A stretch of 64,000 nt of DNA. Origin: Isurus oxyrinchus (Eukaryota). Positions within the stretch are counted from its first letter, which is position 1. Every line of letters starts with the position of its first letter. The notes under the pieces are model-generated. The model was not told the DNA's origin. It ran no database searches and was given only the letters and a program-made list of their open reading frames with translations. The translations under genes and the position numbers were made by a program. Below, piece after piece: positions 1,712 through 60,026 of the stretch. The DNA is taken from NCBI GenBank assembly GCA_026770705.1, contig JANJGN010000033.1:14756001-14820000 (forward strand), read 5' to 3'.

Positions 1712-2254
1712 TATCGGAATGGCAATTGAATTGTTTTGAAAATTATGGTGAGAATTTTTTGACTTCACCTATTTGTTCAGTTGGTTTAATAAAACCCAGT
1801 CGACATGGGACCAGAATTTCCGAACTGACGGATCCCCTCCCTTACTCGTAACAGAAATCCTCTCAACGTGTCAATCGGAAAGTTGTTCTGAGCATCAGAA
1901 CCGACCACCTAATCTTCTGACGATACAAAAAGGGAAAATGGTTCTCGATTTTCTGACCAAGATCAAGATTTTATGGGCGCTAGATGATATTCAAAAGATA
2001 TATTTCCCAGTTTTGGCTGTGTTTGGTGTGCCAGGTAAGCAGCTGCTTGCAGCAGGTACATCAGTAAACGGAGATGGTCAGTGTGGAGCATCTTAGCCCT
2101 GGGTCCAGCTCGTTCTTTCAAAATTGTCCAAACATTAGACCATGTTATTGGAAACTGTTCTTTTTACAAATGAGGCTGCAATGTAATGACACTTTATTGG
2201 CTGTAGAGCATTTCGAAACTTCCTGAGTTCATGAAAGGTCTTTTCCTTAATCAC

Positions 2255-2362
2255 CATTCATTCATTCATTCATTCATTCATTCTTTGTTTGTTTGTTTGT
2301 TTCTTTCTTTCCTTCATTCTGTCTTTATTTCTATCTTTTTTTCTTCCTTTCTTCCTTCCTGT
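2255..2362. repeat. Compound microsatellite (TTCA)n(TTTG)n(TTTC)n
   Basis: Directly visible. The paralogous site at 28365-28435 is (TTTC)n/(TTCC)n. Confidence 0.9.
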
Positions 2363-2884
2363 GTTTGATAGCTGTTTATGATTCACTAGTGTGAATTCAA
2401 ATGTTTTGCTACCAGTTCAGTGATTACTCTGCCCCCAGTAGTCATCATTATTTCCTTTTAAGGCAATTCTCTAAGAGACTATTGCTCTTTCAGAGCGCAG
2501 CACAAGTGATATCACACTGTTAATCTCAGAATAAAAAATGTTCACTTTGATGTTGATACTGAGCTCGAGAGTCGAGGGAGAAATTGGTTGATGTTCAAGA
2601 ACTCTCTTCAAGTTCTGCAGCAGAGAGTTAGTATTTTAGCATGAAACAAGACCAGTACATAAATTATACCTACACGCATTAGTTTGGCTGTTTCACATTC
2701 CAGCACATACTGCTCCATATTTGTATTACTGTTTCTGAATGGATTAATGAGATAACGAGTTGTTATTCAGAGCAGTTATTGCTTTAATTTCGAGTAATGA
2801 ATTTTAATTAACAAGTTAATCCCTTGTGTATTTGGCACAATTCTTTTTATTCTTGATTGGGATGTACAATAAGTGGAGTGTTCT

Positions 2885-4030
2885 GTTGACAGTATCTTTC
2901 AATACTCCCTCTCTGTTTTGCTTATTCACTTTTCCACCTCTCTTCTGGAAGTTCTTTACTCAGCCATGACCTGAGTTGTATTTTCTACCTAATGCCTGTC
3001 AAGTGCACATTTATTTTTTCCTTATATGAATTTCTACCTTCTTTGTCATCCAGGGAGCTTTGGGTTGGTTTGCCTTACCTTTCTCTTTTGAGGGAATGTA
3101 TGTTGTGCCCAACGCATCTTTTCTTTAAACGTAGCCCCTTGTTCAGATACCGCTTTTCCTGCCGACCTTTGCCTCCAAATCATACCCATTGAAGTTGATA
3201 TTTCCCTGTAAATTATTCCGCCTCTGTTATGCTCATTGCCCCTTTCCATAATCATCCCAAACCTTACGATACAATGATCACAATCCTCTAAACCTTTTCC
3301 TACTGACATTTCAGCTAACTGTCCCAACTCATTCTCAAAAACCGGGCCTAGTAGTGCCTCCATTCTCGTCGGGATGGACGCATAATGATGTACAAAGCTC
3401 TCGTGAAGACACAATATGGACACTTGCCTCTCTCTTTTCTTTACAATAATGCTATCCCAGTCTATATTCAGGTAATTAATGCCCCCCATTATACCTGCTC
3501 TATAATGTTTGCATCTCGCTTTAATTTCACCGTATACTTGTTCCTCCACATCATCCCTAGTAGCTGATGGCCGATATATTGCACTGAGCAATTCAATTGC
3601 ATATGTTTGCTCTTTAACTACCGCCAAGTTGATTCTGACCTTGACTCCTTTGGGATGCAATCTTTCTGTAGCACTGCAAGGGTCTCCTTAATGAATGCCA
3701 CCACCACTACCAGTTTTCTTCTTTCTCTATTTTTCCTGAAGATCTTGTATCCACGACTATCTAACATCTTGTCCAGCCCTTCCTTAAGTGAGCTCTTTGT
3801 TGTAGCCACAACATCACAATTCCAAATGGTAATGTGTGCTTGTAACTCTCCAATCTTATTTAACTCACTCCGTGTGTTCACATACGTGCACTGTAGTCCT
3901 GATTTAGATGCTATCACTTTCTCCACACCTTTTAACTTACTATTCTCTATTCTCATGGCAACTGTCTTTCATAGTATTTTGTGGACTTTTGTTTTCCTCT
4001 TTGTTAATTTCTCCTGATTCCAAAAACCCT
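2885..4030 (-). mobile_element. CR1 LINE ORF2 endonuclease fragment in the intron of A
   Basis: CTYVNTRSELNKIGELQAHI...DVVATT, IYRP and IMGGINYLNIDW match the AP-endonuclease motifs of CR1. Confidence 0.85.
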
Positions 4031-7000
4031 TCCGAGTTTGCAGCCTTCCCCAACGGTCAGTTTTAATGAGGCTGCCAATTCCTTCACAGTTACCTTTGGG
4101 TTTGTTTTCACCTCAGTCTTTGCATTGAAACTTGTTTCACTTTGTACAAAAAGAAGACAAAACAATTACCCTGCCAAGCGCCATCCCACTTCAGCCATGT
4201 CATGGTTAATCTCTATCTTAACTGCATCCACTTAATTTGTTTCCACATCCTGCATTAGCCTTGACTAAAGAAAATAAGGACAGTGTCAATTCTGATTTTG
4301 GCAATTGACCTAGTGTTAATAGATGTTTGCAGGAGATAGTTCCAGATGTCGAATACCTTTTATTAGGAAGAAACAATTTCTGACATCACCTACATATGGC
4401 CAAGTTTATATTTTAACGTTCATACGGTCAGGAAAATAATAGTAACAGTCCTAGGCTATATTTCATTAAGCCAGTTTCATAATGCAATAAGATTATGTCT
4501 GATTTGGTTTTGACCTTGACTTCTTTTTCCTGACCGTCATCCATTATCGTTGCCTGCCTTGTGGATCAATAGTCTATGCCAATTTGATCTAGAGGCTCCA
4601 TCAGAGGGAACAGACTACCTCAGTCTACCCTGTAATCATTTTAATCACCTCAATTTACTGCACTTTTAATCTCACAGTTAATGGAATGTAAGCTTATTCT
4701 GTGCAACTTTATCCAGTTTTTCCATATATTTGTTTGTTTATTACTGATGGATGTAATTATGACCCATTTCTGCACAACCGCCTGTCACTATAAAATACCA
4801 AGTTTCTATCACTGGGGAAAAACTGATCTACATATTTTAGATGTATTTCATGATATGGTGAAGAATAATTAAGCCATCGCCATATATCACTGCATTACAG
4901 AAAACTTCTGTTATTGCCACATGAGAGATCAATTATTTCCCTATATATTTTTTCTCACAGTTAATGTGGTGACGACTGCAATCCCGTCCCCGGGAAAATC
5001 TGGCCTCTCCAAATGTGTGAATCGCTATCTGGTGGCTATGGCAGTTGCAGATCTACTGGGTGTTATAATTGATCTTATGCTAAGGCAGATTCCGATTGTT
5101 TACCGGGAGCAATTTTTTTTTAGAACATTTGTCTGTGTAATGTCCATGCTGTCTTTCTTTATGCTGTCACAGACTGCTCTGTCTGGTTCACAGTCACTTT
5201 CGCCTTTGATCGTTTTGTGGCGATTTGTTGTCAGAATACAAAATCTATATTGCACAGAGAAGTCAGCGGATGTGGTTTTAGGAATTGTGATAGCCCTGAA
5301 ACTGTTGGTATTTTCTACACACTACTGAATACTGGCTTTCTAACAGTTCCTGGTTTTGCCGTGTTGATGCTGGTGTATTTCGTTCAACGGCCCGGGCCAT
5401 TGTTGAATTATTGCATTACATCATAACGCCATTTCTTTCATTTGTTTTATTTCCAGAGTTAAATGCATTAACAGTCAGATACATTTTAGTGGCCAGCAGG
5501 GCCCACAATAGACTCCATGGTTGGAGCCATGGGGCATGGCTCTCTATATTGAGACGATTGGATTGCTTGCAGTATTCTGTTCCTCTGCCAATGTTTGTCC
5601 AGGAAGTGGGATTCATGCTACAAATGTTGAGTTGCTGCACAAACACTTTGATTGATGCAGTGACCAAAAGGAAGTTTAGAGAGGAGTTCTGCAATGGAGT
5701 GAAATATCCCATCACCGTGATCACTAAATTGCTTAATTGAGAAGACATCACAATTCCGAACATTACCAAATGTTTTGCTGTCATGTTCTGTGCATTCCCT
5801 TTGTTGGGTTATGTACCATCATTTTCTTCCTGAAACAAGACTCAAGCCAGTGCAATGTTCTTTGCAAGTTTTTGCCATGTTTGAGAACTTTGCAGCCATT
5901 TGTTTGCAAGGATCTCTTTCTCTGCAAAAAAGGTTTGAAGAATACTTGGCCAAAAGGGTAAGCTGCTTTCGATAGTCCCATGTTGAGCATGTAGTTCAAT
6001 AGTACTTTTAAATGATCCCTTGCTGTGATTATTCCTAGAAATAGACCAATCCTGGGGAATATCAATGCGGGTGTTGAGTATCTCAATGCCAATGAGTTTA
6101 TTTGATCTCTGCCACGTTTGAAGGAAGGCTTTAAAAGATAATTCAAGGCTGGCACCAGCAGAAAAGAAAACAAGTGAACAGGATGACTCTGATGTGTAGT
6201 AATCTCTGCACGATCACTTTGAAAAATGGTGAAAGAGATTTTATATTAAATCCCAGCCCAACACACCACAATCAGCATTTGTCAAAGGCTCCTTATTTTC
6301 TGCATTGAGAGGAGGGCGTTGAACTAATTTAACTAGACATATTTTTGTCAGTGAGTATTATCTATACTCCACCTTGTGTGAATTAAACAGACAGTGAACT
6401 AAAATCAAAGACATTTTCACAACAATAACTTTGTCCATCCATAGAGAGATTGTTTAAAAAAAACAAAGACATAGTGTCATTAGAAGGGAATTGCACTGTT
6501 CATGGCGTGGGTTTCTGTACAATGGACTGCCTGATCAGGTTAAAACACAGGGACCTGTATGACACGTGGGTGGCATGAAGAACAATGCGCCCCGGGGGTC
6601 GCGTACAGCACATGCCCAGGGCCTGGCACAGCACAGATCAGGGTTCAAGCAGGACAAAACTTTGGGAGTGGATGCAGTGAACTGCTGGCTATGGCATTCC
6701 CTTGGGACTCTATCTGACAAAGTCTGAGTTTACTGGGATGGTGCACTCACAGATTCTCACATTGAAAACTGCAGGTTCTTGCTTCACGTCACAGTTATGA
6801 TTGACACACTTATGGTTCCCAGAGCAGCTCTTTCCTAATTTCCAGTGCCGCACATCCCGGGTGAAGGCACACGACCTTCACTATTTCCAGTACATCACAA
6901 TTCAGGTTCCATTTACAGCACTTTCCCGGAACCAAGTCAGGCACCTTTCCCGATCCAGTTGAAGCACATTCCCGCAGCTTGGAGAGCACATTCCTCCCTT

Positions 7001-8599: not shown

Positions 8600-10170
8600 C
8601 GAATGACCACAGCACAGTCATTGTGGAGACGAAGTCCCGTCTTCACATTGGGGATACCCTCCATCATGTTGTGTGGCACTACCACCCTGCTAAATGGGAT
8701 AGATTTCGCACAGATCGAGCAAATCAAGACTGAGAAACCACAAGGCGCTCTGGGCCATCAGCAGAAGCCCAATTTTACTCACCCACAATCTGTAAACTCA
8801 TGGCCAGCAAATCCCCACTGAAGCATTAGCATCAAACGAAGGAATTAACACTGGTTAAATGAAAAGCGCAGGAGACATGCCAGAGAAGCAACAGGCATAC
8901 TTAAAATGAGTTGTCAAACAGGTGAAGTAACAACACAGGACTACGTGCATGCCAAATAGCGTAAGTGATAGACAGAGCTAAGAGATTGAATAAGCAGCAG
9001 ATCAGGTCCAAGCTCTGCAATCCTGACACATCCAGTTGTGAATGGTGGTTGACAATTAAACAACTCACTGAAGGAGAATAGTCCTCAAATATCCCCACCC
9101 TCAATGATGAGGGAGCTCAGCACATCAGTTCATTCGCAACAATCTTCAAATGGAAGTGGCTAGTGAATGATCCATCTTAGCCTCTTCCAGTGGTCCCCAA
9201 CAGCATAGACGCCAGCTTTAGCCAAATCGACTCCCTGCACATGATATCAAGAAATGGCAGAAGGCACTGAATAGTGCAAAGCTTTTGGATCCTAAGAATG
9301 TTCAGGCAATAGGACTGAAGACTTGTACTCCAGAACTTTATGCACCCCTAACTGAGCTGTTCCAGTACAGCTGCAACATTGTCGTGTACAGGCTATGTGG
9401 AAAATTACCCAATTAGGTGCTGTGCAGAAAAAGAAGACAAATTCAACCCAGCCAATTACTACCCATCAGTCTACTCTCTATCATCAGTAAAGTGATGGAA
9501 GAGGTCATCACAAGTGCAATCAAGAAGCATTCCTTTCGCAATAACCTGCTCACTGATGTTCAGTCTGGGCTCCGCCAGGGCCACGCAGCTCCTGACCTCG
9601 TTCCAGCCTTGGTTCAAACATGGACAGAAGTGGGTGTGTTCGCTGATAATTGCAAGATGTTCAGCACCGTTCTCAAAACCTCAGATACTGAAGTACTCCG
9701 TGTGCAACTGACAAAAACCTGGAAAATATCCAGGCTTGGTCTGTTAAGTTACAAGTAACATTTGCACCACACAAGTGCCTCCCGAGGTGAGGTGAGAGTG
9801 GCTGGCGTTGGCATCAAGGCAGCATTTGACTGATTATGGCATCCAAGCAAAATTGGAGTCAATGGATATCATGGGAAAACTATCCACTGGTTGGAGTCAT
9901 AACCAAAACAAAAGAAAATGGTCGTGCTTGTTGGTGGTCAGCCATCTCTGCTTCAGGACATCACTGCAGGAGATCCTCAGCGTAGTGTCCTAGGCCCAAC
10001 AATCTTCAGCTGCTTCATCAATTACCTTCCATCCATCATCAGGTCAGAAGTGGATATGTTAGCTGAAAATTGCACAATGTTCAGCACCATTCTCAACTCC
10101 TCAGTAGCCCTAGTGCAAATACACCAAAACCAGGAAAATATCCAGGCATGGCCTGTCAAGTTGCAAGTAT
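8600..10170 (+). mobile_element. CR1/L2-group LINE RT fragment with an internal rearrangement
   Basis: PISLLSIISKVME, QSGLRQGH and GDPQRSVLGPTIFSCFINYLP...MLAENC match the RT motifs GVPQGSVLGP and FADD. Confidence 0.85.
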
Positions 10171-11830
10171 AATGAGACACTCACTAACCACGACCCAGTC
10201 ATGTTGACTCCAGAGTTTAAAGAACTTTTGAAATAATCATTCTGGACCACATTTACGGTCACTTGAACAAATGCTGATAAATTAAGGAAATCGGTTAAAT
10301 TTGTTCAGGTAGAGTGATGTCTTCCTAGCTTTTTGAATGTTTGATGTGGCATCAAATTGGGTAGATGAGGTTAATGCATTAAATGTAGTGTGCATGACCT
10401 TCGACAAGGTATTTGATAACAACATAAGAAGTAGCAACAGCAGTAGACCATTCAGCCTCTCAAGCCTGCACTGCCATTCAATAAGATCATGGCTCTTCTG
10501 CCACTGGCCTCGACATCTCTTTCTTGCCAGCTCCTCATGGACTGCGACTCCCAGTTATTTCAAAAATCTATCTATCTCCTGTTAATGTATTTTCTGTGAT
10601 CCAGCCTCAACAGCTCTCTGGGGTGGAGGATTCTAGACTTTCACTTCACTCTGAGAGAAGAAATTCCTTCGCATTTCAGTTTTAAATGAGCAACAGAAGA
10701 AGCATGCAAGCAAAGTTGCAACGCTGGAAGATAGGGAACCATAGCAGATATGAATACTAAATTCGAGGAGTGAAAGGAAAGAGAGAGACGAGTGGTGAGA
10801 GCTTGTTATTTGGAATGGAGGAGGATTTTTATTTGAGTTCTCTTTGTTCACTGTTAACACCCCTACTTCTTTTTGTTTTATACTAATGACCAAGGCGTGG
10901 ATGTGCAAGGCGAAAATTCTAATTTTGAGCATGACTCAATAGTAGGAAGTGCTGTGAAGTGCGAGGAGGATTGTTTTGAATTTCAAAAGGACATAGACAG
11001 GCTGACAGATTGGGCAGCCAATTGGTAAGTGGAATTTTATGCAGACATGTGTTAAGTAATTAATTGTTGTCGAACAAATTGGGTCATACATTGTAAAATA
11101 AACTATACAATTCTAGAGGGTGCGCAGGCAGAGAGATCTGCAGGTATATACGCACAAATCATTGAAGGTGGAAGACCAGTTTGAGTGAGCAACGAATAAA
11201 ACAGACACGATGCTGGGCTTAATAAATTCGGCATGGTGTACAAAGCTAAGGAATTTTTTCCAAGTGCATAAAGTCCTGGTTCGGCCTCAACTGCATTATT
11301 GCATTGAATCCCGGACACCACACTTTCTGAACAAGGGGACAGTATTGGAGAGGGTATATGAAAGCTTCCTAATGGTTCATTAGATGAGGAACTTCAGTTA
11401 CATATATTAATTGGAGAAGCTGGGACTGTTCTCCTTGGAGAAGAGAAGTTCGTGCGGAGATTTGATAGAGCTGTTCAAAAGTATGAGTGATCTGGAGAGG
11501 GTAGATCGAGAGGAACAATTCCCATCGGGAGTATAATCTGAAACAGAAAACACTGCTTTAAGATGATTTGCCAAATAAGTAATGGTGGCGGGAGGGAAAG
11601 TAAAATTGTATTACAAAGCGAGTGGTTGAAGTGTGGAATGTATTATCCAAAATTGTGGTGGAGGAAGATTCAATGTGCCTTCCAAGGGGGAATTAGATCA
11701 TTATATGAAGAAAAGCAACAAATCAGAGCTTTGGAGATTTGGTGTGGGAGTGGCACTAAGTGAATTACACAGGAAGAATGGCTCAGATGGCTTCCTTCTG
11801 TAATATGAAAATTGTATAATTCAATGATTC
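10171..11830 (+). mobile_element. Decayed CR1 LINE (RT to 3' end) with a nested short repeat at ~10420-10690
   Basis: VDEVNALNVVCMTFDKVFD, plus LEKLGLFSLE-like 3' sequence. A paralog lies at 51900-53840. Confidence 0.8.
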
Positions 11831-11994
11831 TCTCACTGTTGAGCGCTGCCCCAGACCACTAATTGTGTTCTGCTGTTGAGAAATGCTGTATGGTGAGATG
11901 ACTCTGTTATTTTGTGCATTCTCATACAAAGAGGGGCAATTAATGTTACGGTTTTACAAAGCCTTGGTCGATCCTCAAATTGTTTTCATTCTTA

Positions 11995-12370
11995 AATTGG
12001 ATTTGGGCTTCATTGTCAAAGCCAGCATTTGTTGCCCAACACTAATTGATTTTGAACAGAACATTGTAGAGGGCAATTAAGAATCAACTGAATTGCTGCA
12101 GGTCTTGAATGATATGTAGGCCAGACTGGGCTGGGTAAGGGCGGCAGATTTCATTTCCTAAAGGACTTTATTGAATCCGGTGGGTCTTCACGGCAATAGG
12201 TGATAGTTCCAGGGTTACTGAGATCAGCTGTATATTCTAGATTTATTGACTGAATTTCAATTCCACCAGCTACCACAGTGGGATTTGAACCTGTCTCCTA
12301 ATGGGAATAGCCTGGGTCTCTGGATTATCCGGCAAGTGACATTATAGCTATGGCACCATACCCACCATCT
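11995..12370 (-). mobile_element. tRNA-derived SINE (Deu-domain/SacSINE1-like)
   Basis: Minus strand shows the B box GTTCAAATCCC and a GGAAAT(GAAAT)CTGCC...TCTGGCCTACAT core shared with the other copies. The family name is from recall. A paralog lies at 54010-54375. Confidence 0.7.
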
Positions 12371-13945
12371 TTGTAATGTTTTCAGTTTTACACCATAACT
12401 CAGTAAGGATAATAGTTCCGCTGAATAGCTGAGGAGAGGTTGCGTAAAAGTGAATTGATTTATCTTAACTTTAGGCCATTGATAAACAGCTTAATCGACA
12501 AATTTAAAATACAAAGAGGAAGAAAAAAATCAGCAATTCAGCCATAAAGAAACTATTTCACATCACGGGAAGAAAGAAGCATAATCATAAAATTAGAGAC
12601 ACACCCCTCATGGTGCTAACCAGGAAGGACTATTTCACATAAAGTATAGAGGAAATCGAAAACTGACTCCTTTAAATTAAAATTCAGGATGGCTGAGGAG
12701 GAGCAATTGAAGATTGCAGAAACTACATAGCTGGATTGTTGTTCGGTAAATTTATCAAGGTATCTAAAATAACAGTGGCCAAATACAACCGTAGTAAAGA
12801 CAATCTGTGATGTTGATGAACGGCAAATCAGGATTGCGAGGCCAGCACGGCATATTGTAGTGTGGGGAGATCTACTGATAATCTTCCCTAAAGCCCGCAT
12901 GTGTGATCTACAACTAAGCATCCCTAGATTTGGATCTGGATGGTGTCGCAATAATAAACATGGGGACATCTTTTAGCCACATGACATTACCCTGTCCTTC
13001 AAATAAAACATGCCTGAACTGTATCTTAAATTCAGTTAAGTAGCTTTGTGATGTCATCTGATACACCAATCTAATAGAATTTATTTATTGCAGTTTTACG
13101 AAGTCCACAATGCCCCCAAGCATGCAAAGCATATTGGGCTAAAGAGCTGCGGATGTGCACCATTCCATACGTGAAACATTATTTGCTAGTTTCCCTCCTG
13201 GATGCTACATATTTAGTCTGAAATCGAAGCACATTGTCATTGAGCCCACCCTCAGAACGCATAAGTCGTCAGCAGCTAACCGATTGTCATGTCAACTGCT
13301 TTGCTCATTTTAGACTCTTCGATTGCACTTCAATTTTCTGTCGGCCAACATGAACATAACAGGCCAAATGGTCTCCATCTGTGCTGGAATTTGCGAGGAT
13401 TGTAATGATTTATGTCATTCCCGTCATCATACATTCATATTCTAATCCCAGTAACATTCTGCGGAATCTGCAATGCGCCTCCAGCATTTCCCTGATGTGT
13501 GTTTCCTAAAGCTGAAAAAATATGACGCTCTGAATAGGGTCTTTTCTGGGTTCTATGCAGCCATAGAATAATACTTACAATATTTCTTTCCAGCTCCTGG
13601 CACAAAGAAGTGACTGTTGAATTGTTATTTCTTCTTGTGCTTGTCAATTAACTTACAAACATTTTTGTACATGGGCAGCAAAAGCGCAATCGTCTTTGAC
13701 AGATCATATCTTCTCATCGTTTGGAACAAATGCTGGTTATTTTTTTCTAGTGGTCTAAAGGAATAAACTCAGTTTTCCACGTTGAATTGCATCTTCAATA
13801 GTTTGGGCCACATACTCCTTCACTGCGAAACCGCCTGACGCCATAATCAGGGTTTCCAATCACCATAAATGTTTGCATGCATGTAACAAATTAAGCCACT
13901 TATGCCGCTATAGAACTGAACTGGAATAAGATTGAGAACTAGTGT

Positions 13946-14856
13946 TCAGTTGTTTTTATTTTGAAATACGTCCACAATTACATTAAATGGATATATAAGG
14001 AGATTCTTCACCTCCTCTCTGAATTTACGTTGTATCACGGCATACATGCAGGTGTTGGTGCAGCAAGCCGTGAGTTGAAGCATGAAGGCTAATTCCCGTA
14101 TGTATACAGGTAAATACACAGTATCATAGCCCAGGTACGTCATTCGCCAATAAATACAATATATCATATATAACGTCCATAGCAGTATGAAATTCCCCGA
14201 CACCCCATAGAGAATAATCATTGATTTCCTGCGGTTTTCCATCTCTTGGTCAGTCGGACACTCTGTATTGACATGACTGCGTAGTCTCCTGCGGGCTCTG
14301 TTGGCCACTAAAATGTATTTGACTGTTAGAGCATTTAAGAACAAGACCAAAAGAAATGGAACACATGGATTTATAATATAATGGATGAATTCGACAGTTC
14401 CCCAAGCCTTTGATTCAGCAACACTGTCTGGCACATTACAAAACCAGGATTGATTGATTAACCAGTAACTGCCTGTGTACATAAAGCACCAAAAAATATT
14501 TTTTAAGGAGAATAGCGCAGTTATTGCCGTTATGACCACATTTGCTGTTTTCTCCACGCAATATTTAACCTTTAGCCTCTGGCAGCAAATCGCTATATAT
14601 CGGTCAAACGTGAAACTGACAGTGAACCATACAGAACAGTCTGTGACTGCATGAAGCACGGCTGCATGGATATTACATACTGGAATATTCCGCATGAAGT
14701 AGAACTCTACACGGTAATTTGTAGGGATATGTCTCAGCATCACATCAAATGTAACGACCAGTAGATCGGCTGCGGCCATGGCCACCAGGTAACGAGTAAT
14801 ACATTTGGAGAGACCACACTTCCCACGGGACATGATCACAATTGTCACAATGTTAA
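13946..14856 (-). CDS. Gene B exon 2: probable G-protein coupled receptor 139-like (rhodopsin family); spliced product 353 aa
   Basis: Acceptor TTCTTATAG at 14857 is followed by an uninterrupted ORF. Motifs: TM2 LVAMAAADL, TM3 Cys (PVCN) and FTFDRYIAIC, ECL2 Cys (WFCN), TM5 PCVPF, TM6 GNFILLW, TM7 NTCMY, helix 8 RKFREE. 151+911 nt = 354 codons including the stop. Confidence 0.95.
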
Positions 14857-15519
14857 CTATAAGAAGTTAAATGATAACATACAGAAATCAGATTCAAGGT
14901 GTCTGTCTGCTGGACATATTGTTAACATATTATGATTGATAGAACTTTCTTTCACCAAAGATAAAGCTTGACTACACTGCATTGTCTATTGGAAAATGAT
15001 CATCAAATTTGAAACAGCTAAATGGGTGCCACAATACAGCATCAGGATATCAGCTTGAGCATTCAATGATATAGTGTATTGGGAGCCTGAAAGTTTGGCA
15101 CTTGACATTCTTCCATTGCTTAAAGAGACTGCATTGTATCAGGCAACTGAAGAGTATGAGAATGTGTGAAGCCAGTTCTCCAATTGTGATGATTAGCAGC
15201 TGAAGGGATCTTATTGGGCTTCTAGCTTATTGCATTGGTCACAACCCATTCATGCTGCATGGCATGTGCGACTAGTCAATGACTCACCTTTGATCATGAC
15301 TCATATTCAAGATTGTGGAGGAGGAAAAAATCCACGGGCAGATCCTGTTCTTTTTTCTGTATCTGCTGCTGTAATTTAAGACTTCAGATTTCAGGACGAT
15401 TGGATCAGCTGTAATGAGCCTTTTTAGCAATTAACCAGGGTCACATTTATCTGTAGGGCTTAGAAGTGGAGACCAGGCACGCACGTGCAACTAAACCCTA
15501 ATCAAGGTCATGAAATTTG

Positions 15520-15950
15520 TTTCCGATCTTGGAATCTTGCAGCCAAGACTAAGAACATTCGAGCCATCTTGTGTCAGCACTTTTAATGAGCTGTCAAATT
15601 CGATGGATTCCACTGCTTTCCCCCATAATTTTAGTATATTCACTACAAACAAGTCAATATCCAATTTTCTTTTGAATGTTACCCTTGAAGCTGCTTTCAT
15701 CAGTCTTTGAATTATTGAAATCTTAACCTACGCTCTACTTTAAAATGAACTCCTATCTCAGCTCTGGATCTTTTGACAGTTGCCTTAAATTTGTTTGTCA
15801 ATCCTCTTAGCAATGGAAACAGTTCCTCTTTGTTTATTCCTTCGACTCATTTTATAATATTAAGTTGCCAGGAAATATTACCTCCCACCCCGTTAAGCTT
15901 CTCTGCCAGAAGGAGAATAATTGCAGCTTCTCTAGTCTCACCACGTTGAG
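15520..15950 (-). mobile_element. Old CR1 3' fragment in the intron of B (paralog ~57570-57990)
   Basis: MKAASRVTFKRKLDIDL matches the CR1 C-terminal VEAxSxxxFKxxLDxxL motif. Confidence 0.6.
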
Positions 15951-17765
15951 GAAGAGTGAAAAGCACACTTACAAATTGGTTAAGAGTATTTAAAGATAGA
16001 GTCGAGCCAAAGAGCTATACATTAATACGGAAAAAAATAATTTCGGAGAGGAGCTGACAGACGAAGAATGGGGAAGCAAACAGTGAGCGTTCAGCATTAG
16101 AAAATGTTGGGCAGTCTGTGTATCTGTTGTGATACTAACTCTGGATTTTGAGAGAGCAGTTATAAAACCAGCACCTGCTTGCTCGGGAAAGTTGCTGGAA
16201 TACAATGCAGAAAACAATCATATATAATTAATAAAATAAATATTAACTCACCATTCCATTCGTTGCAATAATTACATACACTCTTTGACCTATATTGATA
16301 TCATGGCATATGAATCAAATGCACGCATTATTTGTTCAAACTGTCAAATTACATTCCAGAAATATTGGATCTCTCCTGCGGTGCAACATTGGCCATGCTG
16401 TAGAAATATTTTTTCGGCTGTAAAACATCTTGTTATATCTATCCTTGAATGCTGCCATTCAATTCCACATTTCTCTGTATTTTATTTGTTTTGCATGCAT
16501 CTCTTATTTCGATGTTTTAATAGCATGGATCATAATTCTAAAATATCATCATGGATTCATAAACGAGCTATATAGAAATGCTGGGTGTATTAACCAGTTT
16601 GTGAGTAATGGCTCCATGGCCAATTGTTACTGGAAAGTTGCAACGAACTGATGGAATTTGCTTAATTTACTGATCTATGAATTATCAGTTAACTGTTACA
16701 TTTTGATATGGGAAAACATTTCGAAGAACAATTGTTAATCAGCCATGGATGTTGTGCTGACTAAAGATTTGTTGAACGGAAACTAGAAGTGTCGCACTTG
16801 CAGAAATACCTCAGACGAATGGCTAGAGATACTACATGTTCAGCTGTCAGTGCACTGTAGCAACGTTTCATTGTGTTGCGGTGCTCTGAACACAAGTTAA
16901 CCTGAAGATGTAATGTTTATTGTACGGCAACCATAAGATGGAGCCCGTGTATAGTTACATCAGTATAATTGGTTGCATTATCAGGCACAGAAGAGTTCTG
17001 ATAGCAGCCTAATTGGAACATGCGAACACAGCTAGAGCAAAAAATGCAGTTAATCGTAATTACCCAAATAAGGTATAATTATAAACTCCTAATTACAAGA
17101 ATAATAATGTTGTTTGAAATAAATCATAACTTATCTATTTAAGGATACTGATATTAATGCATAAAGTCCAAATATTCTAAGCGAGGCAGCAAAGTGGAGC
17201 TGGATTATTTCAAAGTGGCTGACCATTTGTCGTCTATCTGTATTCACTCTATTACTCGACATATCAAAGTATGCTTTCAGTTAAGGATACAGTCCTGGCC
17301 TGTGTCGTTCTACTCTCAAACTTCAACTTTACAGCAACAATGTGAGGATCTTATATACCAAAATAAAGTTCGATGGTTGACAAAGTCTCTCCAGAGCAAA
17401 CAAACAGTAAAACACATGCGAAGACACTGACTAAATATAATAAACAGGCGGCTGGAAATAATCACGTCACGGAAGCATGGGACCTCCTTATGCATAAAAC
17501 AGATCGACTATACTCAATGCAGATAACCACTGACAGAAATAGATCGAATAGATACTTTTAAAAATACAGTCTATAGATTTAATTACTGAATATCATGACT
17601 TGCGTGGTGCGTGCATAGTAATTGGGTTCAAAATGTTAATATTAAATATGCAGTCGCCGTACAATCGAACAAACTTCATTGATGATTCAAATTGATACCG
17701 CAGAATGAATAATTCACTAACATCTTAAACGGCAATGAAATACACAGCTGGAAAGAACGACTTAC

Positions 17766-17916
17766 AAGGAACACCAAATGCAGCCAGAATTGGATAATAA
17801 ATGCGCTGCAAATTCCGAAAAGCAAATTGTATTTTCAGCAGTGCCAGCAGAGAAAATTTTCTATCTTGCGTGAAAAGTAATGATCGTTCAAACTCCAGCA
17901 TTTGATTTCCATCCAT
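17766..17916 (-). CDS. Gene B exon 1 (N-terminus and first half of TM1) of an intact GPR139-like class A GPCR
   Basis: ATG at 17916 opens MDGNQ...YYPILAAFGVP (50 codons + 1 nt), followed by a consensus donor T|GTAAGT at 17765. The phase-1 junction joins exon 2 in frame. A paralogous exon of the same 151-nt length lies at 59876-60026. Confidence 0.9.
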
Positions 17917-17959
17917 GAACCACCGTCTACACGGAATCGCTTGGCACTTCGGGATGTGT

Positions 17960-18040
17960 CTTCCTTCTTATAACACTGATAACCCTCGAGTGAGTTAATT
18001 ATGATCCAGTTGGACCCACATTAATTACAGCAATTGAACA
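17960..18040 (-). promoter_or_regulatory. Putative core promoter of gene B: TATA-like TATAAG plus two TTAATTA homeodomain-type sites
   Basis: TATAAGAAG on the minus strand starts at 17972, about 55 bp upstream of the ATG. TTAATTA occurs at 17995 and 18021. All three motifs, and the 26-bp spacing between the two TTAATTA sites, are kept in the D copy. Confidence 0.45.
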
Positions 18041-18910
18041 AGCAGATTCAGGTATTCCCTTGCAACCGAATAGTTTTTTTCTTTGAACACAATGTATTTA
18101 TCACGTGTTATGAAAACCTTGTGAATACCAGCAGGGTACAAATTAAAACAAATACGAAACTAAATATAGTAGAGACATAATAAACTGCAAATTCCAAAAA
18201 TTAATACAAAATCTGAAGCATGGGGTTTTGTGTCCGCTTATGCCAAGGACGAATGAAAGGGCATCCGATTATTTATTTGAGATTACTTAGAACGATTGAA
18301 AACAAAAATCGAGGAAATATTCGGAGACACTCATAGGGTCCAGTGACTTCTTTTTTTAAAAAAAATATTCTATGGCTCCGGAATAATTTGTAAACATTAC
18401 CAAATTCAGGGCAATCTCCACTTTAAATGCTTGGTGTACAATTGCGTGCAAATACTTGCCCTTTCTTTTGATTTCTTTTTGAGTATTGGCACTTGGGCAT
18501 CCCCTATGCAGGCGTAACTCGCACACTTCGTAATTTCCTACAGATTTGTTATGACAATCCACAATGACGTCTGTGAGGGAGTCACATGATTATGATGACT
18601 CCAGGAATGCAAAAGCTTTAGAGTAATTTCCTTAAAGTGTTCGCACTACACGACGATGTAAAGATTCGCAGAGTGGGGGAAACTTCAACGTGCGCTGCAA
18701 ACACATTGATTTTCATGATCTCCACGCACAGCGGTACTGATCCTCGAACTCCCCCTGGACTATATTTGAGAAACTATGAACGTCTCCTCAGAAGAACTTC
18801 GCTGAATCCTGCGACGGCTGCCACAGTTTGGCAACCCCCTGAAAGTGTGGAGTACATAAGCATTTCATAAAAGTTGTGACACACCGAATTCCCTTGTAAA
18901 AGCCGATTGT

Positions 18911-19050
18911 GAGAGGTTTGAAGAAAAGTCAAACGGACTCGAAACATTAACTCTTTTCCTGTCTCCACAGCTATTAACAGGCCTGCTGAGGTTCTGCAGC
19001 ATTTTACGCTTTTATTTCAGATTTCCAGCATCCGCAGTATTTTGCTTCCA
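18911..19050 (+). mobile_element. Penelope-like terminal-repeat relic with a degenerate hammerhead core
   Basis: TTGAAGA-AAAGTC-AAACG-GACTC-GAAACATTAACTC is followed by the arm ...CCTGCTGAG...TTCCAGCATCCGCAGTATTTTG seen in the other copies. Confidence 0.6.
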
Positions 19051-38700: not shown

Positions 38701-38809
38701 CACCCTGAATTCTCCCTTTAACAATCTAGCTAGTACTCTAATTAACTTTTTATTTTGAATTAATACACTTAGACTTGTTATCATCTTTCCACCGTATATT
38801 TTTATTATG

Positions 38810-39930: not shown

Positions 39931-39989
39931 CGAGAAGCAAGCTTGCTTGTCAGCAGCTTTCTGTCTAAAGTTATTAACAGGAATTGCAC

Positions 39990-51899: not shown

Positions 51900-53840
51900 C
51901 CTGACCATGGTGGAAAAGGAGGTAATTGAAATACTTGATGGGTTAAAATTGATAAGGAAGCCATATAAAATTGGTTGACTAATTTCGATAATTAATTTCG
52001 ATAAATCACCTAGATCGCACACTTTGCATCCACGGATACTGAGCAAAACAAGGGGAGAAATTGTAGGGACACTGACGATAATAATACAATTATCCTTAAG
52101 TGCAGAGGTGGTTAAGAGGAATCGAAAATTGGAACTACTTCATCGTTGTTCAATGAAGGTTATAACGAGATGCCCACTAACCATGACCCAGTCACGTTGA
52201 CTCCAGAGTTTAAAGAACTTTTGAAATAATAATTCTGGATGAAATTTACCGACACTTGAACAAAGGCTGATAAATTAAGGAAACTGGTTAAATTTGTGAA
52301 GGCAGAATCGTGTCTTAAAAGTTTTTTGAATTTTTTGATGCGGTAGCAAAGTGGGTAGATGAGGGAAATGCATTAAATGTAGTGTGCATGACCTTCTACA
52401 AGGCATTAGATAAGAACATAAGAAGTCAGTGCTGAACTAATACATTCAGCCCCTCAAGTTTGCCCTGCCATTCAATAAGATCATGGCTGATCTGCCCCAA
52501 GCTTTGACTCCTCTTACGCGCCAGCTCCTCACAGCCCTCAACTCCTCGATATTTCAAAAATCTATCTAACTCCTTTTCAGTACATTCATTAACTTAACCT
52601 CAATAGCTCTCTTGGGTAGAGGATTCTAGGCATTCATTACCCTCTGAGAGAAGAAATTCCTTTGCATCTCATTTTTAAATGAGCTACACAAAGAGCATGC
52701 AAGCAAAGTTATAACGCTGGAATAAATGGAACCAGAGCAGATATGAATATTAAATTTGAGGAGTGACAGGAAAGAGAGACGAGTGGTGACAGTTTGCTTT
52801 TCGGATTGGAGGAGGATTTATACTTCAATTCTCTTTGCACATTGTTAGGAATGCTGCTTCTTTGTGTGTTAGACAAGTGACTGAAGATCTGATGTGCAAT
52901 GCAAAAATTCTAATTTTGGGCATGATTCAATACTAAGAAGTGTTGGGAAGTGCGGGAGGATTGTACTAAACTTCAAAAGGACATAGAAAGGCTGACAGAT
53001 TTGGCAGCCAATTGGCAGTTGGAACTTAATGCAGATAAGTGTAAAGTGATTAATAGTTGTCGAACAAATTGTGTAATATATTGTAAAATAAAGTTTACAA
53101 TGCAGGAGAGTGTATAGACACAGAGAGATCTGGGGGTATATGTGCACAAATCATTGAAGGTGGAAGAATAGTTTGAGTGAACATCTAATAAAGCATACAC
53201 AATCCTGCGCTTTCCAAATTGGGCTTAGAGTGCAAAGTTAAAGAAGCTGTGATCAAACTGGAAAAAATCCTTGGTTGGCCTCACCTGCATTATTGTGTTC
53301 AATCCTGGACACCACAATTGCGGATCAAGGGGTCAGCATTGGAGAGGGTGCATGAAATCTTCCCGAGAATCGTTCATGAGTTGAGAAACTTCAGTTATAG
53401 AGATCAATTGGAGAAGCTGGGACTGTTCTCCATGGAGAGGAAAAGTTTGAAAGGAGATTTGATAGAGCCATTCAAACGTATGAGTGATCTGGACAGGGTA
53501 GATAGAGAGGAACAATTCCCAGTGGGAGAATAATCGAGAAACCGATGACACTGATTTTAGATGATTTCCCACATAAGTAATGGTGGTGGGAGGGAAAGTA
53601 AAATTTACTTACATAGTGAGTGGTTGAGATGTGGATTGTATTATGGAAAATTTTGGTGCAAGAAGATTCAATGTGCTTTCCAAGGGGGAATTAGATCATT
53701 ATATGAAGAATAACAAAAAATCAGTGCTTTGGAGAATTGATGTGGGAGTGGCACTAAGTGACTTACTCACAAAGAGAGCTGGCACAGGAAGGATTGCTCA
53801 GATGGCCACTTTCAGTGCTAAAAACATTGTACGATTCAAT
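51900..53840 (+). mobile_element. Decayed CR1 LINE (paralog of 10171-11830, longer at its 5' side)
   Basis: PHLHYCVQSWTP...ALERVH...LEKLGLFSMERKSLKGDLIE. Confidence 0.85.
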
Positions 53841-54009
53841 GTGTCTATGACTTCGAAGCACTGTGCCAGACCACTAATTATGTTCTGCTGTTGAGAAATG
53901 TTAGTACGGTGAGATGATTCTGTTGTTTGCAACTTGTCCTACAAAGAGGGCAAATAATATTACAGTTATACAAAGCCTTGGTCGAACCTCACCTATTTTT
54001 CATTCCTTA

Positions 54010-54375
54010 ATGGGATGGGTATTGTTGACAAATCCAGCATTTGTTGCCCACCCCGAATTCCTTTTGAATAAAACATTGTGGAGAGCAGGTAAGAATCAAC
54101 TAAATTGCTTTGGGTCTGGAAATTTATGTAGGCCAGACTGGGCTGGGAAAGGGTGGCAGATTTATTTTCCTCAAGGACTTTAGTGAACTAGATGGGTCTT
54201 TCCGACAATAGATGATAGGTTCACAGTTACTGAGACGAGCTTTATATTCCAAATTAATTGACTGAATATCAGTTCGACTAGCTACCACGGTGGGAATAGA
54301 ACCTATCTCCCCAGGGCATTCGCCGGGGTCTTTGGATTATCAATCGAGTGACACTATAACTATGGTACCAGCCCC
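54010..54375 (-). mobile_element. tRNA-derived SINE (paralog of 11995-12370)
   Basis: Same position and orientation within the duplicated block. Confidence 0.7.
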
Positions 54376-55972
54376 GCTATCTTTAGTACTATTTTCAGTT
54401 TTACACCATAACTCAGTAAGGATAATAATTCCGCTAAAATACAGAGGAGAGGTTGCATTAAAGTGAGTTGATTTATCTTCAATCGAGGCCGGTTGATATG
54501 CAGTATAATCGAAAAATTTAAAATAAGAAGAGGGAGAAAAAAATCGGCAATGCAGCCGCAGAGAAACCGTTTCACATAACAGAAAGTAAGGAGGATAACC
54601 ATAAAATTAGATACAAACCATTCATGGTGCAAACCTGTAAGGATGATTTCACACAAAGTGTAGAGGAAATCTAAAACTGAATTCATGAAACGATGATGCA
54701 GGAGGGCTGGGGAGCGGAATTTGGTGATTGCCAGAACTACATAGCTGGATTGTTGTTCTTTAAGTGTATCAAGCTAACTAAAATAACAGTGGATAAATGG
54801 AATTGTAGCAAAGACCATCTATGATGTCAATAAATGGCAGATCGCGATTGCGAGGCCAGCACGATATAATGAAGCTTAGGGGGATCGACTGATAATCTTC
54901 TCAAAAGCACCCAGGTGTGCTCTACAACGGAGCGCCCCTAGATTTGGATCTGGATGATATAATAATATTAAACATGGGAACATCATGTATCACCATGGAA
55001 TTACACTGCCCTTCAAATACATCTGCCCTGCATCTTAAATTAGGTTAACTTGCTTTGTGACATCCTTTGATACACTAATCTAATAAAATGTATCTATCGT
55101 AGTTTTAATAAGTCCACAATGTCCCCAAGCATGCAAAGCACGTTGGGTGAAAGAGCTGCAGATATGCACCACTCTATACGTGAAAGAGTATTTGCTAGTT
55201 TCACTCCTGGATGGCATATGTTTAGTTTAAGATCGAAACACATTGTTACTGAGACCTCCTTCAGAAAGCGTAGGTCATCAGCAGCTAACCAACAATCATG
55301 TCAATTGCTTTGCTCATTTTAGACTCTTTCATTGCACTTCAATTTTCTTTCGGCTAACATGAACATAACAGGCCGAACAGGCTCCATCTGTGTGCTAATT
55401 TTCTAGGATTGTAATAATTTATCTCATTCCTGTCATCATAAATTCATATTCTAATCCCGGTCACATTCGATGGAATTTGCAATGCTTCGCCAGCAAGGCC
55501 CATTTTCCTGATGTGTGTTAGCCAAAATTAAAAAAAGAGATAACGCTCTGGATAGGGTCTGTCCTGAGTTCTATGCAGCCAAAGAATAATGTCTACACCT
55601 GACTTTTCCAGCCCTTGTGACAAAGAAGAACTTCGTAATAAGAGTTAATATTTCCTTTTACGCTTATCAATTAACTTACAACCATTTTTGTGCATGGGCA
55701 GCAAAAGTTTTTGATAGATCCTATCTTCTCACCGTTTGGACCAAAGGCTGGTTTAACTTTTTTTTGGTGTCCTAAATGAACTCAGTTTACCCCATTGAAT
55801 TGCATCTGCAATAGTTTGGGCCACTTACGCCGTCACTGTGAAACCGCCTGATGCCATAATCAGGATCTCCTGGCCCAGAGTTTCCACTGACCAATTTGTT
55901 TGCATGCATGAAACACATTAAGGCAATTAAGATGATAAACAACACGAATGGCTGAATATTGAGATCTAATGA

Positions 55973-56883
55973 TCAGTTATTTTTATTTTTAATCACTTTA
56001 ACAATTACATTAAAGGGATATTTAAAGATATTCTTCACCTCCTCTCTGAATTTGCGTTGTATCACGGCATACATGCAGGTGTTGGTGCAGCAAGCCGTGA
56101 GTTGAAGCATGAAAGCTAATTCCCGTATGTATACCGGTAAATAAACAGTCTCATAACCCAGGTACATCATTCGCCAATAAATACAATATATCATATATAA
56201 TGTCCAAAGCACTATGAAATTCCCTGAAACCCCATAGAGAATAATCATTGATTTCCTGCGGTTCTCCATCTCTTGGTCAGTGAGACACTCTGTATTGACA
56301 TGACTGCGTAGTCTCCTGCGGGCTCTGTTGGCCAGTAAAATGTACTTGACGGTGAGAGCATTGAAAAACAAGACAAGGACAAATGGAATACATGGATTTA
56401 TAATATAATGGATGAATTCCACCGTTCCCCAAGCCTTTGATTCAGCAACACTGTCTGGCACATTACAAAACCAGGATTGATTTATTAACCAGTAATTGCC
56501 CGTGTACATAAAACACCAAAAAATATTTTTTAAAGAGAAGAGCGCAGTTATTGCCAATATGACCGTATTTGCTGTTTTCTCCACACAATATTTAATTTTT
56601 AACCTCTGGCAGCAAATCGCTATATATCGGTCAAAGGTGAAACTGACAGTGAACCACACAGAACAGTCTGTGACTGCGTGAAGAATGGCTGCATGGAAAT
56701 TACATACTGGGATATTCCTTATGAAGTTGAACTTTATACGGTAATTAGTAGGGATATGCCTTAGCATCACATCAAATGTAACGACCAGTAGATCGGCTGC
56801 GGCCATGGCCACCAGGTAACGAGTGATACATTTGGAGAGACCACACTTTCCACGAGACAAGATCACAATTGTCACAATGTTAA
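55973..56883 (-). CDS. Gene D exon 2: probable G-protein coupled receptor 139-like; spliced product 353 aa
   Basis: Acceptor TTCTTACAG at 56884, then a 911-nt exon with the same 7TM motifs as B. About 25 differences in 300 aa versus B (manual count), no indels. Confidence 0.95.
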
Positions 56884-58399
56884 CTGTAAGAAGTTAAACG
56901 AAAACATATGAAAATCAGAGTGAAGGTGTCCGTCTTCTGGACTCATTGTTAACACAATGCCATTGATGGAAATGACTTTCACTGAAGAGAATGTTTGACA
57001 ACACTTCAGTTACTATTGGAAAATATATATCCAGTTAAAAACAACTAAATGGGTAACGCAAAACAGCATAAGAATATCATATTCAAAATAAAATGCTATA
57101 GTGTATTGGGTGCCTGAAATATTGGCACTGGACATTCTTCCATTGCTTTAAGTGACTGTGTTGTATCACGCAACTGAAGAGTATGAGAACATGTTAAGCC
57201 AGTTCACCGATTGTGATACATAGCAACTGAAGGGATCCTATTGGGCTTCTAGCTAATTGCACTGGTCACCACTCACTGATTCTGTGTTACATGTGTGACC
57301 AGTGAATGACTAGCCCCTGATCATGACTCATGTTCAAGGTTATGGAGGAGGAAACAAATCCATGTGCAGGTCCTGCTCATTTTTCAGTATCTGCTGCTGT
57401 AATCTAGGACTTCAGATTTCAGGATGATAGGATTAGCCATAGTGAAACTCTTTAGGAATTAACCAGGGAATATTTATCTGTAGGGGCTTGGAAGTGGAGA
57501 CAAGGCATGCACATGCAGCTACACTCTAACAAGGATAAAAACCTTTATTCCCCATCTTGGAATCTTGCAACAAGAAATGAGACCACTCGAACATTCTTTC
57601 TTGTGCCAGCGCTTTTAATGAATGTCAAATTGAATGGATTACACTGCTTTTCCTTATAATTTTAGAATATTCACCACAACAAAGTCATTATCCAATTTAC
57701 ATTTGAGTGTTACTCTTGAAACTACTTTCATCACTCTTTGAGACGTTGAAAAATTAACCAACGCTCTACTTTCAAATGAAATCCTCATCCCAGCTACAGC
57801 TCTTTTGACATGTACCTTAAAATCGATCCTTTGTTTACCAATGCTCCTTCTAATGAAACACGTCCTCTTTGTTTCTTCCTTCTACTCATTTGATAATATT
57901 AATTTGAAATAAAATATTTCCTGCCACCCCGTTAAGCTTCTGTGCAAGAAGGAGAATTTTTGCAGTTTCTCGAGCCTCAACACGTTAAGGAAGACTGAAA
58001 AGCACGCTTAAAATTGGATAAGAGGATTAAAGTATAGACTCAAGCAAAGGAGCTGCACATTAATACGGCATCATGAAATTCGAGAAGGAACTGACATAGG
58101 AAGAATGGGGAAGCAGGATGTGAGCGTGCAACCTTAGAAAATGTTGGGCAGTATGTGTATTTGTTGTTATACTAACTCTGGATTTTGAGAGCATAGTTAT
58201 AAAACCAGCACGAACAAGCTCGGGTGAGGGGGTGAAATAGAATGAAGAAAGCTACCACATATAATCGATAAAACAAACATTAATTTACTTGTTCCATCTG
58301 TTGCAATAATTAAACACACTGATTGACTTATATTGATATTATTGAATTTGCATCAAATGCACGCAATATTTGTTCAAATTGTCAAAATACATCGCAGAA

Positions 58400-58465
58400 A
58401 TATCGGTTCTTCCCTGCGATAGAACATTGGCCATATCAGATCTTTACTGCAATACAACATTGGCT
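58400..58465. repeat. Diverged 33-bp tandem duplication in the intron of D
   Basis: ATATCGGTTCTTCCCTGCGATAGAACATTGGCC followed by ATATCAGATCTTTACTGCAATACAACATTGGCT. The B intron has a single copy (~16361-16393). Confidence 0.8.
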
Positions 58466-59875
58466 ATGCTGCAGAAAGGTTTTTTTTACATTGGTAAAGC
58501 CATTTTTGATATCCATCATTGAACTTTGCCATTCAATTGCACATTTCTCTGTATTTTATTTGTTTTGTATGCATCCCAAAATTCGATGTTTTACTAACAT
58601 GAAACATAATTCCAAAATATCATAATGGATTAATAAACAAGCGATATGGAAAAGCTGAGAGTTTTAACCTGTTTGTGAGTAATGGCTCCATGGACAATTG
58701 ATACTGGAACATTGCAACAGACTGATGGAAATTGCTGAAAGTGCCTATCTATGAATTATCAGTGAACTGTTACATATTGATATCGGATAACATTTCGAAG
58801 AACAATTGTTAATCAGCCATTGATGTTGTGCTGAAAAGAGATTTGTTGAATGGAAACTAGAAGTGTCGCACTTGCGGAGATACCTCAGACTAATGGCAAT
58901 AGATACAGTGCGGGATTATAAGTTCAACTATCAGTGCACTATAACACCGGTTCAAAGTGTTGTGGTGCACTGAACACTAGTTAACTTGAAGATGCAATGT
59001 TCATTGTATGGAAACCATAAGGTCGTGTCTGCATACAGTTACATCTGTCTAATTGGTTGCATTATCAGGCACAGAAAGAAGAGGGCTGATAGCAGCTAAA
59101 TTGGAACATGCTAACAAAGCTAGAACTAACAATGCAGTTAATCGTCATTACCCAAATAATGTATAAAAATAATCTCCTAAATGCAAGAATAGTAATGCAC
59201 TTTGAAATAAATCATAATATAGCTATTAAAAGATACTGATATTGTTGCATAATGTCCAAGTATTCTCAGTGAGGCAGCTAAGCGGAGTTGAATTACTTCT
59301 AAATGCCTGACCATTTCTCCTACTCACTCTATTACTCGACATAACAAAGTATGCCTTCAGATAAGATTAAAGTCCTGGTATGTAACGTTCTACTCTCAAA
59401 CTTGCATTGTGCAGCCACGACAAACAGCACAAGTAATCATTGAACAATGTGATGATCTTATATACTGAAATAAAGTTCGATGGTTAGCCAAATCTATCCA
59501 GATCAAACAAATTGTAAAAAAAAAAGTGAAGAAACTGATCCCAATGAAATACACAGGCGGCTGGAAACAACCACGTCACAGAAACATGGGGCCTACTTAT
59601 ACTTAGAGCAGATCGACTTTAGTCAGTGCAGATAAGCAGTGACAGAAATAGTCCGATTGGAGATTTTAATACATACAGCCTATAGATTTAGTCACTGAAT
59701 ATCATGACTTGCGTGGTGCGTGAATAGTAAATGGGTGCGAAAATATTAATGATAAATATGAAGCAACTGTGCAATTGTACAAGCTTCATTGATGATTCAA
59801 CTTGATACCGTAGTTTGAGTAATTCACGAACATCATAAACGGCAATGAAATACATAGCTGGATAAAATGACTTAC

Positions 59876-60026
59876 AAGGAATACCAAATGCAACCAGAAT
59901 TGGATAATAAACGCGCTGCACATTCCGAAAAGCAATTTGTATTTTCAGCAGCGGCAACATGTACGATAGTCGATCTTGCGTGAAAAGTGATGAACTTTCA
60001 AACTCCAGCATTTGACTTCCATCCAT
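59876..60026 (-). CDS. Gene D exon 1 of an intact GPR139-like GPCR
   Basis: ATG at 60026 opens MDGSQ...YYPILVAFGIP (50 codons + 1 nt), with donor T|GTAAGT at 59875. 37 of 50 aa are identical to gene B exon 1. Confidence 0.9.

Follow-up and report, generated by a model that had tools for sequence, protein, structure and literature searches.

A 64,000-nucleotide stretch of the Isurus oxyrinchus genome (hereafter the window; contig C33, positions 14,756,001-14,820,000, in an assembly of 4.98 Gb and 5,558 contigs) contains two intact G protein-coupled receptor (GPCR) genes, B and D, and four broken paralogous loci, A, C, E, and F. They belong to a real and very large family of class A (rhodopsin-like) receptors that is apparently undescribed. 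Motif matches suggest ~3,000-3,400 loci in this one genome, and members occur in sharks, skates, rays, and chimaera alike. Its kind—a birth-and-death GPCR repertoire—is already known; its ancestry is new for vertebrates. Judged from sequence, its members may be sensors of external chemicals, a reading that we weigh below against three others.

A Receptor Family of Thousands of Loci

How many copies of these genes does the genome hold? A search with exon 2 of gene D returned 7,721 candidates, and all 129 that were scored were near full length, with at least 55% identity. An exact DNA pattern, motif A, matched the genome 1,994 times (1 match for its control), a broader pattern overlapping this first motif matched 1,796 times (control 0), and two further, separate motifs matched 1,627 (control 0) and 368 times (control 1). 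Within the stretch covered by both listings, motif A was found in 55 of the 95 motif-C loci, among 100 motif-A loci, and the total locus number given above was estimated by recapture from this overlap.

How many of these loci are intact? Loci were sampled from the first 100 matches listed per motif, so the sample is a non-random one. On larger contigs, 59 motif-A loci (60 of the 100 listed, with L080 left out) comprised 26 with an intact and 33 with a broken exon 2. On smaller contigs, 40 motif-B loci comprised 19 intact and 21 broken ones, and 17 of the 24 that carry both motifs were intact. Scaled to the 1,994 matches, the lower rate corresponds to ~880 (640-1,130) intact exon 2s and the upper one to 1,410 (1,010-1,700), a figure that is biased upward. 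Exon 1 was found at 15 bits or better for 12/26 intact exon 2s on the larger contigs (within 7-17 kb) and for 12/19 on the smaller ones (within 8.7 kb), at least two of the latter being defective. Because exon 2 is intact in 26/59 and 19/40 of the sampled loci, the genome probably holds several hundred to ~1,000 distinct functional genes. The preliminary description of the window had proposed a lineage-specific birth-and-death expansion with pseudogenes; ~2,000 motif matches, and a sample in which about half of the exon 2s are broken, bear this out. Copies are far more than a few genome-wide, on a scale well beyond what the window lets one see.

Approximately 95% of motif-A matches fall on contigs from C33 onward, most of which are smaller. 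Several clusters occur at contig ends (C18, 0.03-2.5 Mb; C29, 0.3-1.1 Mb; C31, 0.11 Mb; and C27, 34.5-34.8 Mb on a contig 34.96 Mb long), which suggests subtelomeric arrays. At least 10 copies on C34 (L009-L020, ~1.4-2.35 Mb), spaced roughly 50-100 kb or more apart, are 99.8-100% identical over 3.9 kb and reflect either amplification in the very recent past or an error of assembly. Some pairs of copies on C46 and C51 are 99.4-99.5% identical. The 500 bases upstream of the genes gave only scattered short matches between subfamilies, so we claim no shared promoter element. In some subfamilies (L081, L212-L221), exon 1 encodes an extended N-terminus in which short Thr-Met-Asp-rich units recur and N-glycosylation sites may be present.

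Distribution among Cartilaginous Fishes

Is the expansion particular to Isurus? A protein search gave 1,924 clusters (at 90%) among 2,804 candidates. Six shark species and one skate account for 119 of the 120 clusters listed; 118 clusters bear the name 'GPR139', one is 'capa receptor-like', and one is unnamed. A library clustered at 50% gave 111 matches at E up to 1e-30; 12 of the 20 representatives looked up were chondrichthyan, 11 of them by name, including Callorhinchus, Leucoraja, and Hypanus, and the twelfth is presumably Callorhinchus from its accession prefix. The other eight were a salamander, a coelacanth, a teleost, a nemertean, and four entries with no name. The subfamily of genes B and D is old, being kept in Heterodontus, Mustelus, Heptranchias, and Chiloscyllium.

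RefSeq and Atlas searches label family members 'probable GPR139'. Because these RefSeq gene models exist, misleadingly named, the sequences themselves are not new. Catshark models in RefSeq that belong to the clade include XP_038663149.1, XP_038642649.1, XP_038643917.1, XP_038640530.1, XP_038654761.1, and XP_038636254.1. Several RefSeq accessions or isoforms for P0437 (catshark) and P0432/P0433 (bamboo shark) give a weak hint of transcription. No RNA data set was listed for gene D, and in contigs of four presumed-RNA runs, compared at 80% likeness, paralog pieces touch exon 2, no joint spans the intron, and most 5' loose ends shown read as intron sequence; these outcomes count neither for nor against expression. 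No description of the expansion was found in the PMC open-access or bioRxiv literature, although subscription papers could hold one; pairing 'gpr139' with 'chondrichth', or 'G-protein coupled receptor 139' with 'cartilaginous fish', retrieved nothing from the open-access literature. The family is not mentioned in the supplements of PMC8455134, PMC12498223, PMC13188829, and PMC11589584 (one picture PDF excepted), the first of which has one unrelated GPR142 orthogroup line, or in the main text of 10.1101/2025.06.08.657570, PMC13100897, and PMC10620051 by word search.

Gene Structure and Local Duplication in the Window

The six loci of the window are made up of the following features:

Gene B exon 1, 17916-17766, minus strand: intact, phase-1 GT donor
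Gene B exon 2, 14856-13946, minus strand: end of transmembrane helix (TM) 1 to stop, intact
Gene D exon 1, 60026-59876, minus strand: intact, phase-1 GT donor
Gene D exon 2, 56883-55973, minus strand: intact
Locus A exon 1, 1938-2034, plus strand: ATG to TM1, open, GT donor
Locus A exon 2, 4961-5740, plus strand: pseudogene
Locus C exon 1, 28047-28144, plus strand: duplicate of A, one extra base causing a frameshift
Locus E exon 1, 39476-39380, minus strand: open, orphan; exon 2 absent
Locus F exon-2 relic, 22959-22724, minus strand: covers TM1 to TM3, interrupted by stops and a frameshift
Junction C/E, 33822-34230, no strand: C (plus) and the E-bearing copy (minus) converge; both exon 2s missing

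Genes B and D each have a GT-AG phase-1 intron of 2.9-3.0 kb and encode proteins of 353 amino acids that match Pfam 7tm_1. The two are 89% identical in protein (316/354 codon positions agree) and 91% in nucleotides. Locus A belongs to a different subfamily; its exon 2 carries frameshifts near 5116, 5248, 5292-5307, and 5364-5372 and has lost ~96 nt near 5540. Exon 2 of locus C is broken off a few bases past the acceptor, at 33822, and a single deletion presumably accounts for the loss of both converging exon 2s. No exon 1 was found for locus F.

Local duplication is evident here. In a self-comparison of the window, 3-4963 and 26112-33824 are 79% identical, the latter being the segmental duplicate that gave rise to the A/C pair; likewise, 10168-20645 and 52161-63997 are 81% identical, and the second is the segmental duplicate behind the B/D pair. 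The stretch 34230-41193, which carries E, copies at 84-86% identity the locus of another intact gene, L090, ~30-40 kb before the window start. The preliminary description had recognized local duplication, which these three duplicated stretches confirm, and two intact genes, which stand; its count of four loci, two of them dead, gives way to six loci with four broken. The compact two-exon structure that it described holds within the window and fails across the family: elsewhere in the genome, the distance from exon 1 down to the exon-2 motif used as anchor ranges from ~0.4 to 16.6 kb.

Two strong 7tm_1 matches of a different class A type lie beside the cluster end (C33:15219517-15220293 and 15285114-15285890) and could act as synteny anchors. 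Degraded open frames at 3046-3687, 32058-32606, 36047-36418, 37376-37780, and 53192-53533 resemble what we take to be pieces of long interspersed nuclear element (LINE) retroelements of CR1 type; a Pfam scan of three of these five frames gave no match.

A Sister Lineage of GPR139 and GPR142

Are these genes copies of GPR139, as their database names imply? A GPR139-specific pattern matched three sites in the genome: GPR139 (L091), GPR142 (L092), and one family member. L091 is the true GPR139, 94% identical to the Mustelus and 85% to the human protein, while identity between the family and GPR139 is just 21-29%. The best solved-structure match by sequence is nonetheless GPR139/GPR142 (E 1e-8), and family, shark GPR139, and shark GPR142 all have a phase-1 intron just before N1.50, which makes their kinship clear.

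A 37-row IQ-TREE phylogeny, with which an 83-row FastTree phylogeny agrees (L140 was left out as partial), places the family within the GPR139/142-related group in the wider sense. A branch with 100/100 support separates this group from six other shark class A receptors, and aminergic outgroups fall far outside the family. The family forms one clade with an amphibian/sturgeon gene (99/97); next to join (99/98) are a coelacanth/teleost gene and two shark genes, L134 and L135, with GPR139/142 outside. Support is only 86/76 for the order in which GPR139/142, the family, and four invertebrate-type rows branch. Approximately unbiased (AU) tests rejected the grouping of the family with GPR139 (P = 4e-90) and with GPR139 plus GPR142 (P = 7e-4); the groupings came from a prior hypothesis, and the tests were made after the tree was seen. 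The preliminary description was thus correct that these genes are not the GPR139 ortholog, as the shark has its own GPR139 and GPR142 elsewhere, and the tree keeps the family separate from both. The family derives from a sister lineage of GPR139/142 and not from GPR139 or GPR142 themselves.

This sister lineage apparently survives as one gene in amphibians and sturgeon (XP_031757816.1 in Xenopus, XP_069092602.1 in Pleurodeles, RXM35349.1 in sturgeon). The listing has one cluster per species (20 amphibian rows and one sturgeon), which points to a single copy in amphibians on the basis of protein entries rather than genome scans. The best match of the amphibian gene in the shark genome is a family member (37%). 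The coelacanth/teleost receptor, XP_005988539.1, is probably one 'GPR210' subtype. 'GPR210' subtypes related to GPR139/142 are named from coelacanth, gar, and fishes in a survey without sharks (PMC6504862).

Two single shark genes belong near this part of the tree. L134 (C9:126713131-126714114, minus strand) is the shark's single ortholog of XP_005988539.1, 59% identical, with an in-frame TGA in the second extracellular loop that marks either a recent pseudogene or a sequencing error. L135 (C6:157839131-157840036, minus strand) is a single, intact, deep-branching GPR139-related gene, 35% identical to the coelacanth protein and with no close relative in either tree.

Receptor Features and Selection

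Class A membership is plain from profile, motifs, and fold. PF00001 matched 86/86 aligned members, DRY/DRF is present in 41/45 and C3.25 in 42/45, and a model of exon 2 is a confident seven-helix bundle (predicted local distance difference test score 90.8, predicted template modeling score 0.86). The nearest solved folds are peptide and chemokine receptors, with template modeling (TM) scores of 0.55-0.74 that are flat across class A; fold likeness does not discriminate among class A receptors.

Can the ligand be read from GPR139? In that receptor, E108, F109, H187, W241, R244, and N271 bind L-Trp/L-Phe (PMC7318219; PMC12775434 for E108, R244, and N271). Of 45 family members, 2 have R at the R244 site and 4 have N at the N271 site, and most have L, V, I, or S in place of E108; 40 retain W241, 24 retain H187, and at least 29 have an aromatic residue at the F109 site. 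Since E108, R244, and N271 are not kept, amino-acid sensing cannot be borrowed from GPR139.

We compared variability at 20 pocket-facing positions, picked by generic class A numbering rather than from model coordinates, with that at other outer-helix positions; P values serve only as a guide, as sites and related sequences are non-independent. In amphibian orthologs (n = 18), pocket entropy is 0.0 vs. 0.40 bits elsewhere (P = 2e-5). Across 31 family representatives it is 2.63 vs. 1.92 (P = 3e-4), and 28/31 of them are acidic at 3.37.

The family is under purifying selection. The ratio of nonsynonymous to synonymous substitution rates (dN/dS) is 0.17 for B vs. D, and its medians across divergence bins are 0.25-0.48 for 56 intact copies. 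In 15 independent close paralog pairs it is 0.34 overall, 0.23-0.28 in the helices, and 0.64 in the extracellular loops.

Possible Functions

What might so many receptors do? We hold it about evenly balanced whether the family is a birth-and-death repertoire that senses peptides or other external chemicals in sensory cells. On this view, ancestral gnathostomes would have had a single such receptor, inferred from the tree, whose ligand was fixed. Amphibians and sturgeon would have kept it, and segmental duplication would have amplified it in cartilaginous fishes, the amplification itself being visible in the genome. Subfamilies would then have retuned the pocket around the kept acidic residue at 3.37 and W6.48, with signaling presumably passing through a G protein (DRY/DRF is kept). 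Pocket changes between subfamilies, together with outer-loop variation in recent copies, suggest many ligands of one chemical class, probably peptides. Somewhat more doubtful is the fuller proposal that sharks, rays, and chimaeras possess their own chemoreceptor repertoire, comprising hundreds to ~1,000 peptide-receptor-derived GPCRs per genome that are labeled 'probable GPR139'. If that were true, the family would rival mammalian odorant receptors in size, and the view of a shark nose running on a few dozen V2Rs would be overturned.

Several observations weigh against a sensory repertoire. In the largest clade (41 non-redundant members of the Isurus genome) the pocket is no more variable than its surroundings (0.95 vs. 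1.00, P = 0.74), so a single ligand may serve many copies. Because loop dN/dS stays below 1, positive selection is not shown, and GPR139 orthologs too have outer loops more variable than inner ones, for which reason we rejected outer-loop variability as a chemosensory-specific sign. Exon 1 was located for only 24/45 intact exon 2s in the searched stretch and some copies are near-identical, which makes the functional gene count uncertain. Finally, the olfactory neurons of catshark all appear to be of the microvillous TRPC2/Go type, served by V2Rs (PMC10116579), and catshark OR, TAAR, and some V2R genes are described as expressed mainly outside the nose (PMC11979771).

Three other readings fit parts of the evidence. 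The strongest, which we consider unlikely yet a real competitor, is that the receptors form an immune, barrier, or somatosensory repertoire that would detect peptides from microbes, venoms, or damage and would operate in leukocytes, skin, or sensory ganglia. Mammalian FPRs and MRGPRs provide the analogy. Such a repertoire should leave the same genomic signature; variation concentrated in the outer loops agrees with it, as do the peptide and chemokine receptors nearest to the fold model, flat though that likeness is. Known repertoires of this type, however, hold tens of genes, against hundreds to thousands here. MAS1 and its relatives arose in bony vertebrates, according to the whale shark paper (PMC8455134), which leaves such a sensing role open in sharks.

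Internal or reproductive signaling, for example in testis or sperm, with the largest clade expanded to raise the dosage of receptors for a single type of ligand, strikes us as improbable. It would explain why the pocket is conserved within that clade, where D2.57, R2.61, H3.28, D3.37, E5.39, H5.42, R6.59, and E7.36 are each kept in 37-41/41 members, and it accords with the invariant pocket of the apparently single-copy relative, as in endogenous-ligand receptors, and with the testis enrichment of several catshark V2Rs and or2 (PMC11979771). It sits poorly with a pocket that is hypervariable between the 31 subfamily representatives and with the death of about half of the sampled loci.

Marginally less probable again is that most copies are segmental-duplication passengers in repeat-rich chromosome ends, inflated by uncollapsed haplotypes around a small functional core: the near-identical copies on C34, C46, and C51, the reduction of 19 intact copies to 16 when grouped at 98% identity and to 12 at 95%, the crowding of motif-A matches on C33 and later contigs, and the missing exon 1 of 21/45 count in its favor, but at a 98% threshold the 26 intact copies from larger contigs all stay separate (22 do so at 90%), the independent recent paralog pairs are constrained, and the same expansion, including the old B/D subfamily, recurs in other species.

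Significance

To our knowledge, the family may rank among the largest GPCR families of any vertebrate. Cartilaginous fishes have been described as relatively poor in GPCRs, in the whale shark paper (PMC8455134), and as chemoreceptor-poor (PMC10116579); thousands of loci contradict the statement of GPCR paucity, whatever the family's role. If the genes are expressed in sensory cells, the puzzle of a keen shark sense of smell with few receptors becomes directly testable in the catshark RNA atlases that exist already. The family's relative in Xenopus, apparently present in a single copy, opens a laboratory route to the ancestral ligand.

Comparison with Known Receptor Systems

With GPR139 and GPR142 the family shares NxxxY in place of NPxxY and, in the shark, the two-exon plan. 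In contrast to them, it keeps C3.25 and is without their E108, R244, N271, and P6.50. The amphibian receptor has one cluster per species and an invariant pocket, whereas the family has thousands of loci and a variable one.

By profile and motif, the family falls outside the vertebrate chemoreceptor classes compared. Odorant receptors (ORs) bear MAYDRYxAIC and KAxxTC motifs; either motif is found in 0/45 members, and the 7tm_4 profile matches 0/86 (an odorant-receptor profile has 20 matches in the same genome, 3 of them strong). Trace amine-associated receptors (TAARs) are marked by D3.32 and the TM7 fingerprint NSxxNPxx[YH]xxx[YF]xWF; the fingerprint is found in 0/45 members, and position 3.32 is mostly L/V/I/S. 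V1R/ORA, T2R, and V2R profiles matched none of the 86 members, which gave only 7tm_1, weak Srx, and one DUF. Like the OR, TAAR, V1R, V2R, and T2R families, this one is clustered, pseudogene-rich, and lineage-specific, with pocket positions that vary between its subfamilies, and its size is comparable to the largest mammalian OR repertoire (1,948 genes, elephant); unlike them, it has a coding-region intron and a different ancestry. Sharks are reported to have 6-13 OR, 3-5 TAAR, 2-4 ORA, and 8-43 V2R genes (PMC10116579).

There are also parallels among protostomes. GPR139/142 are placed as sister to protostome RFamide/Wamide peptide receptors, and the wider lineage is reported to bind aromatic-ended peptides (PMC8557429). 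Nematode srw genes come from those peptide receptors, turn over fast, and have been proposed as sensors of environmental peptides (PMC2576165). The Srw profile matches 0/86 aligned family members, and Srx matches weakly in 8/86. Like the shark family, nematode srw and the gastropod FMRFamide-receptor-like sets are large tandem birth-and-death expansions from peptide receptors (PMC2576165, PMC11589774, PMC8557429); unlike it, they are independent expansions that took place in protostomes.

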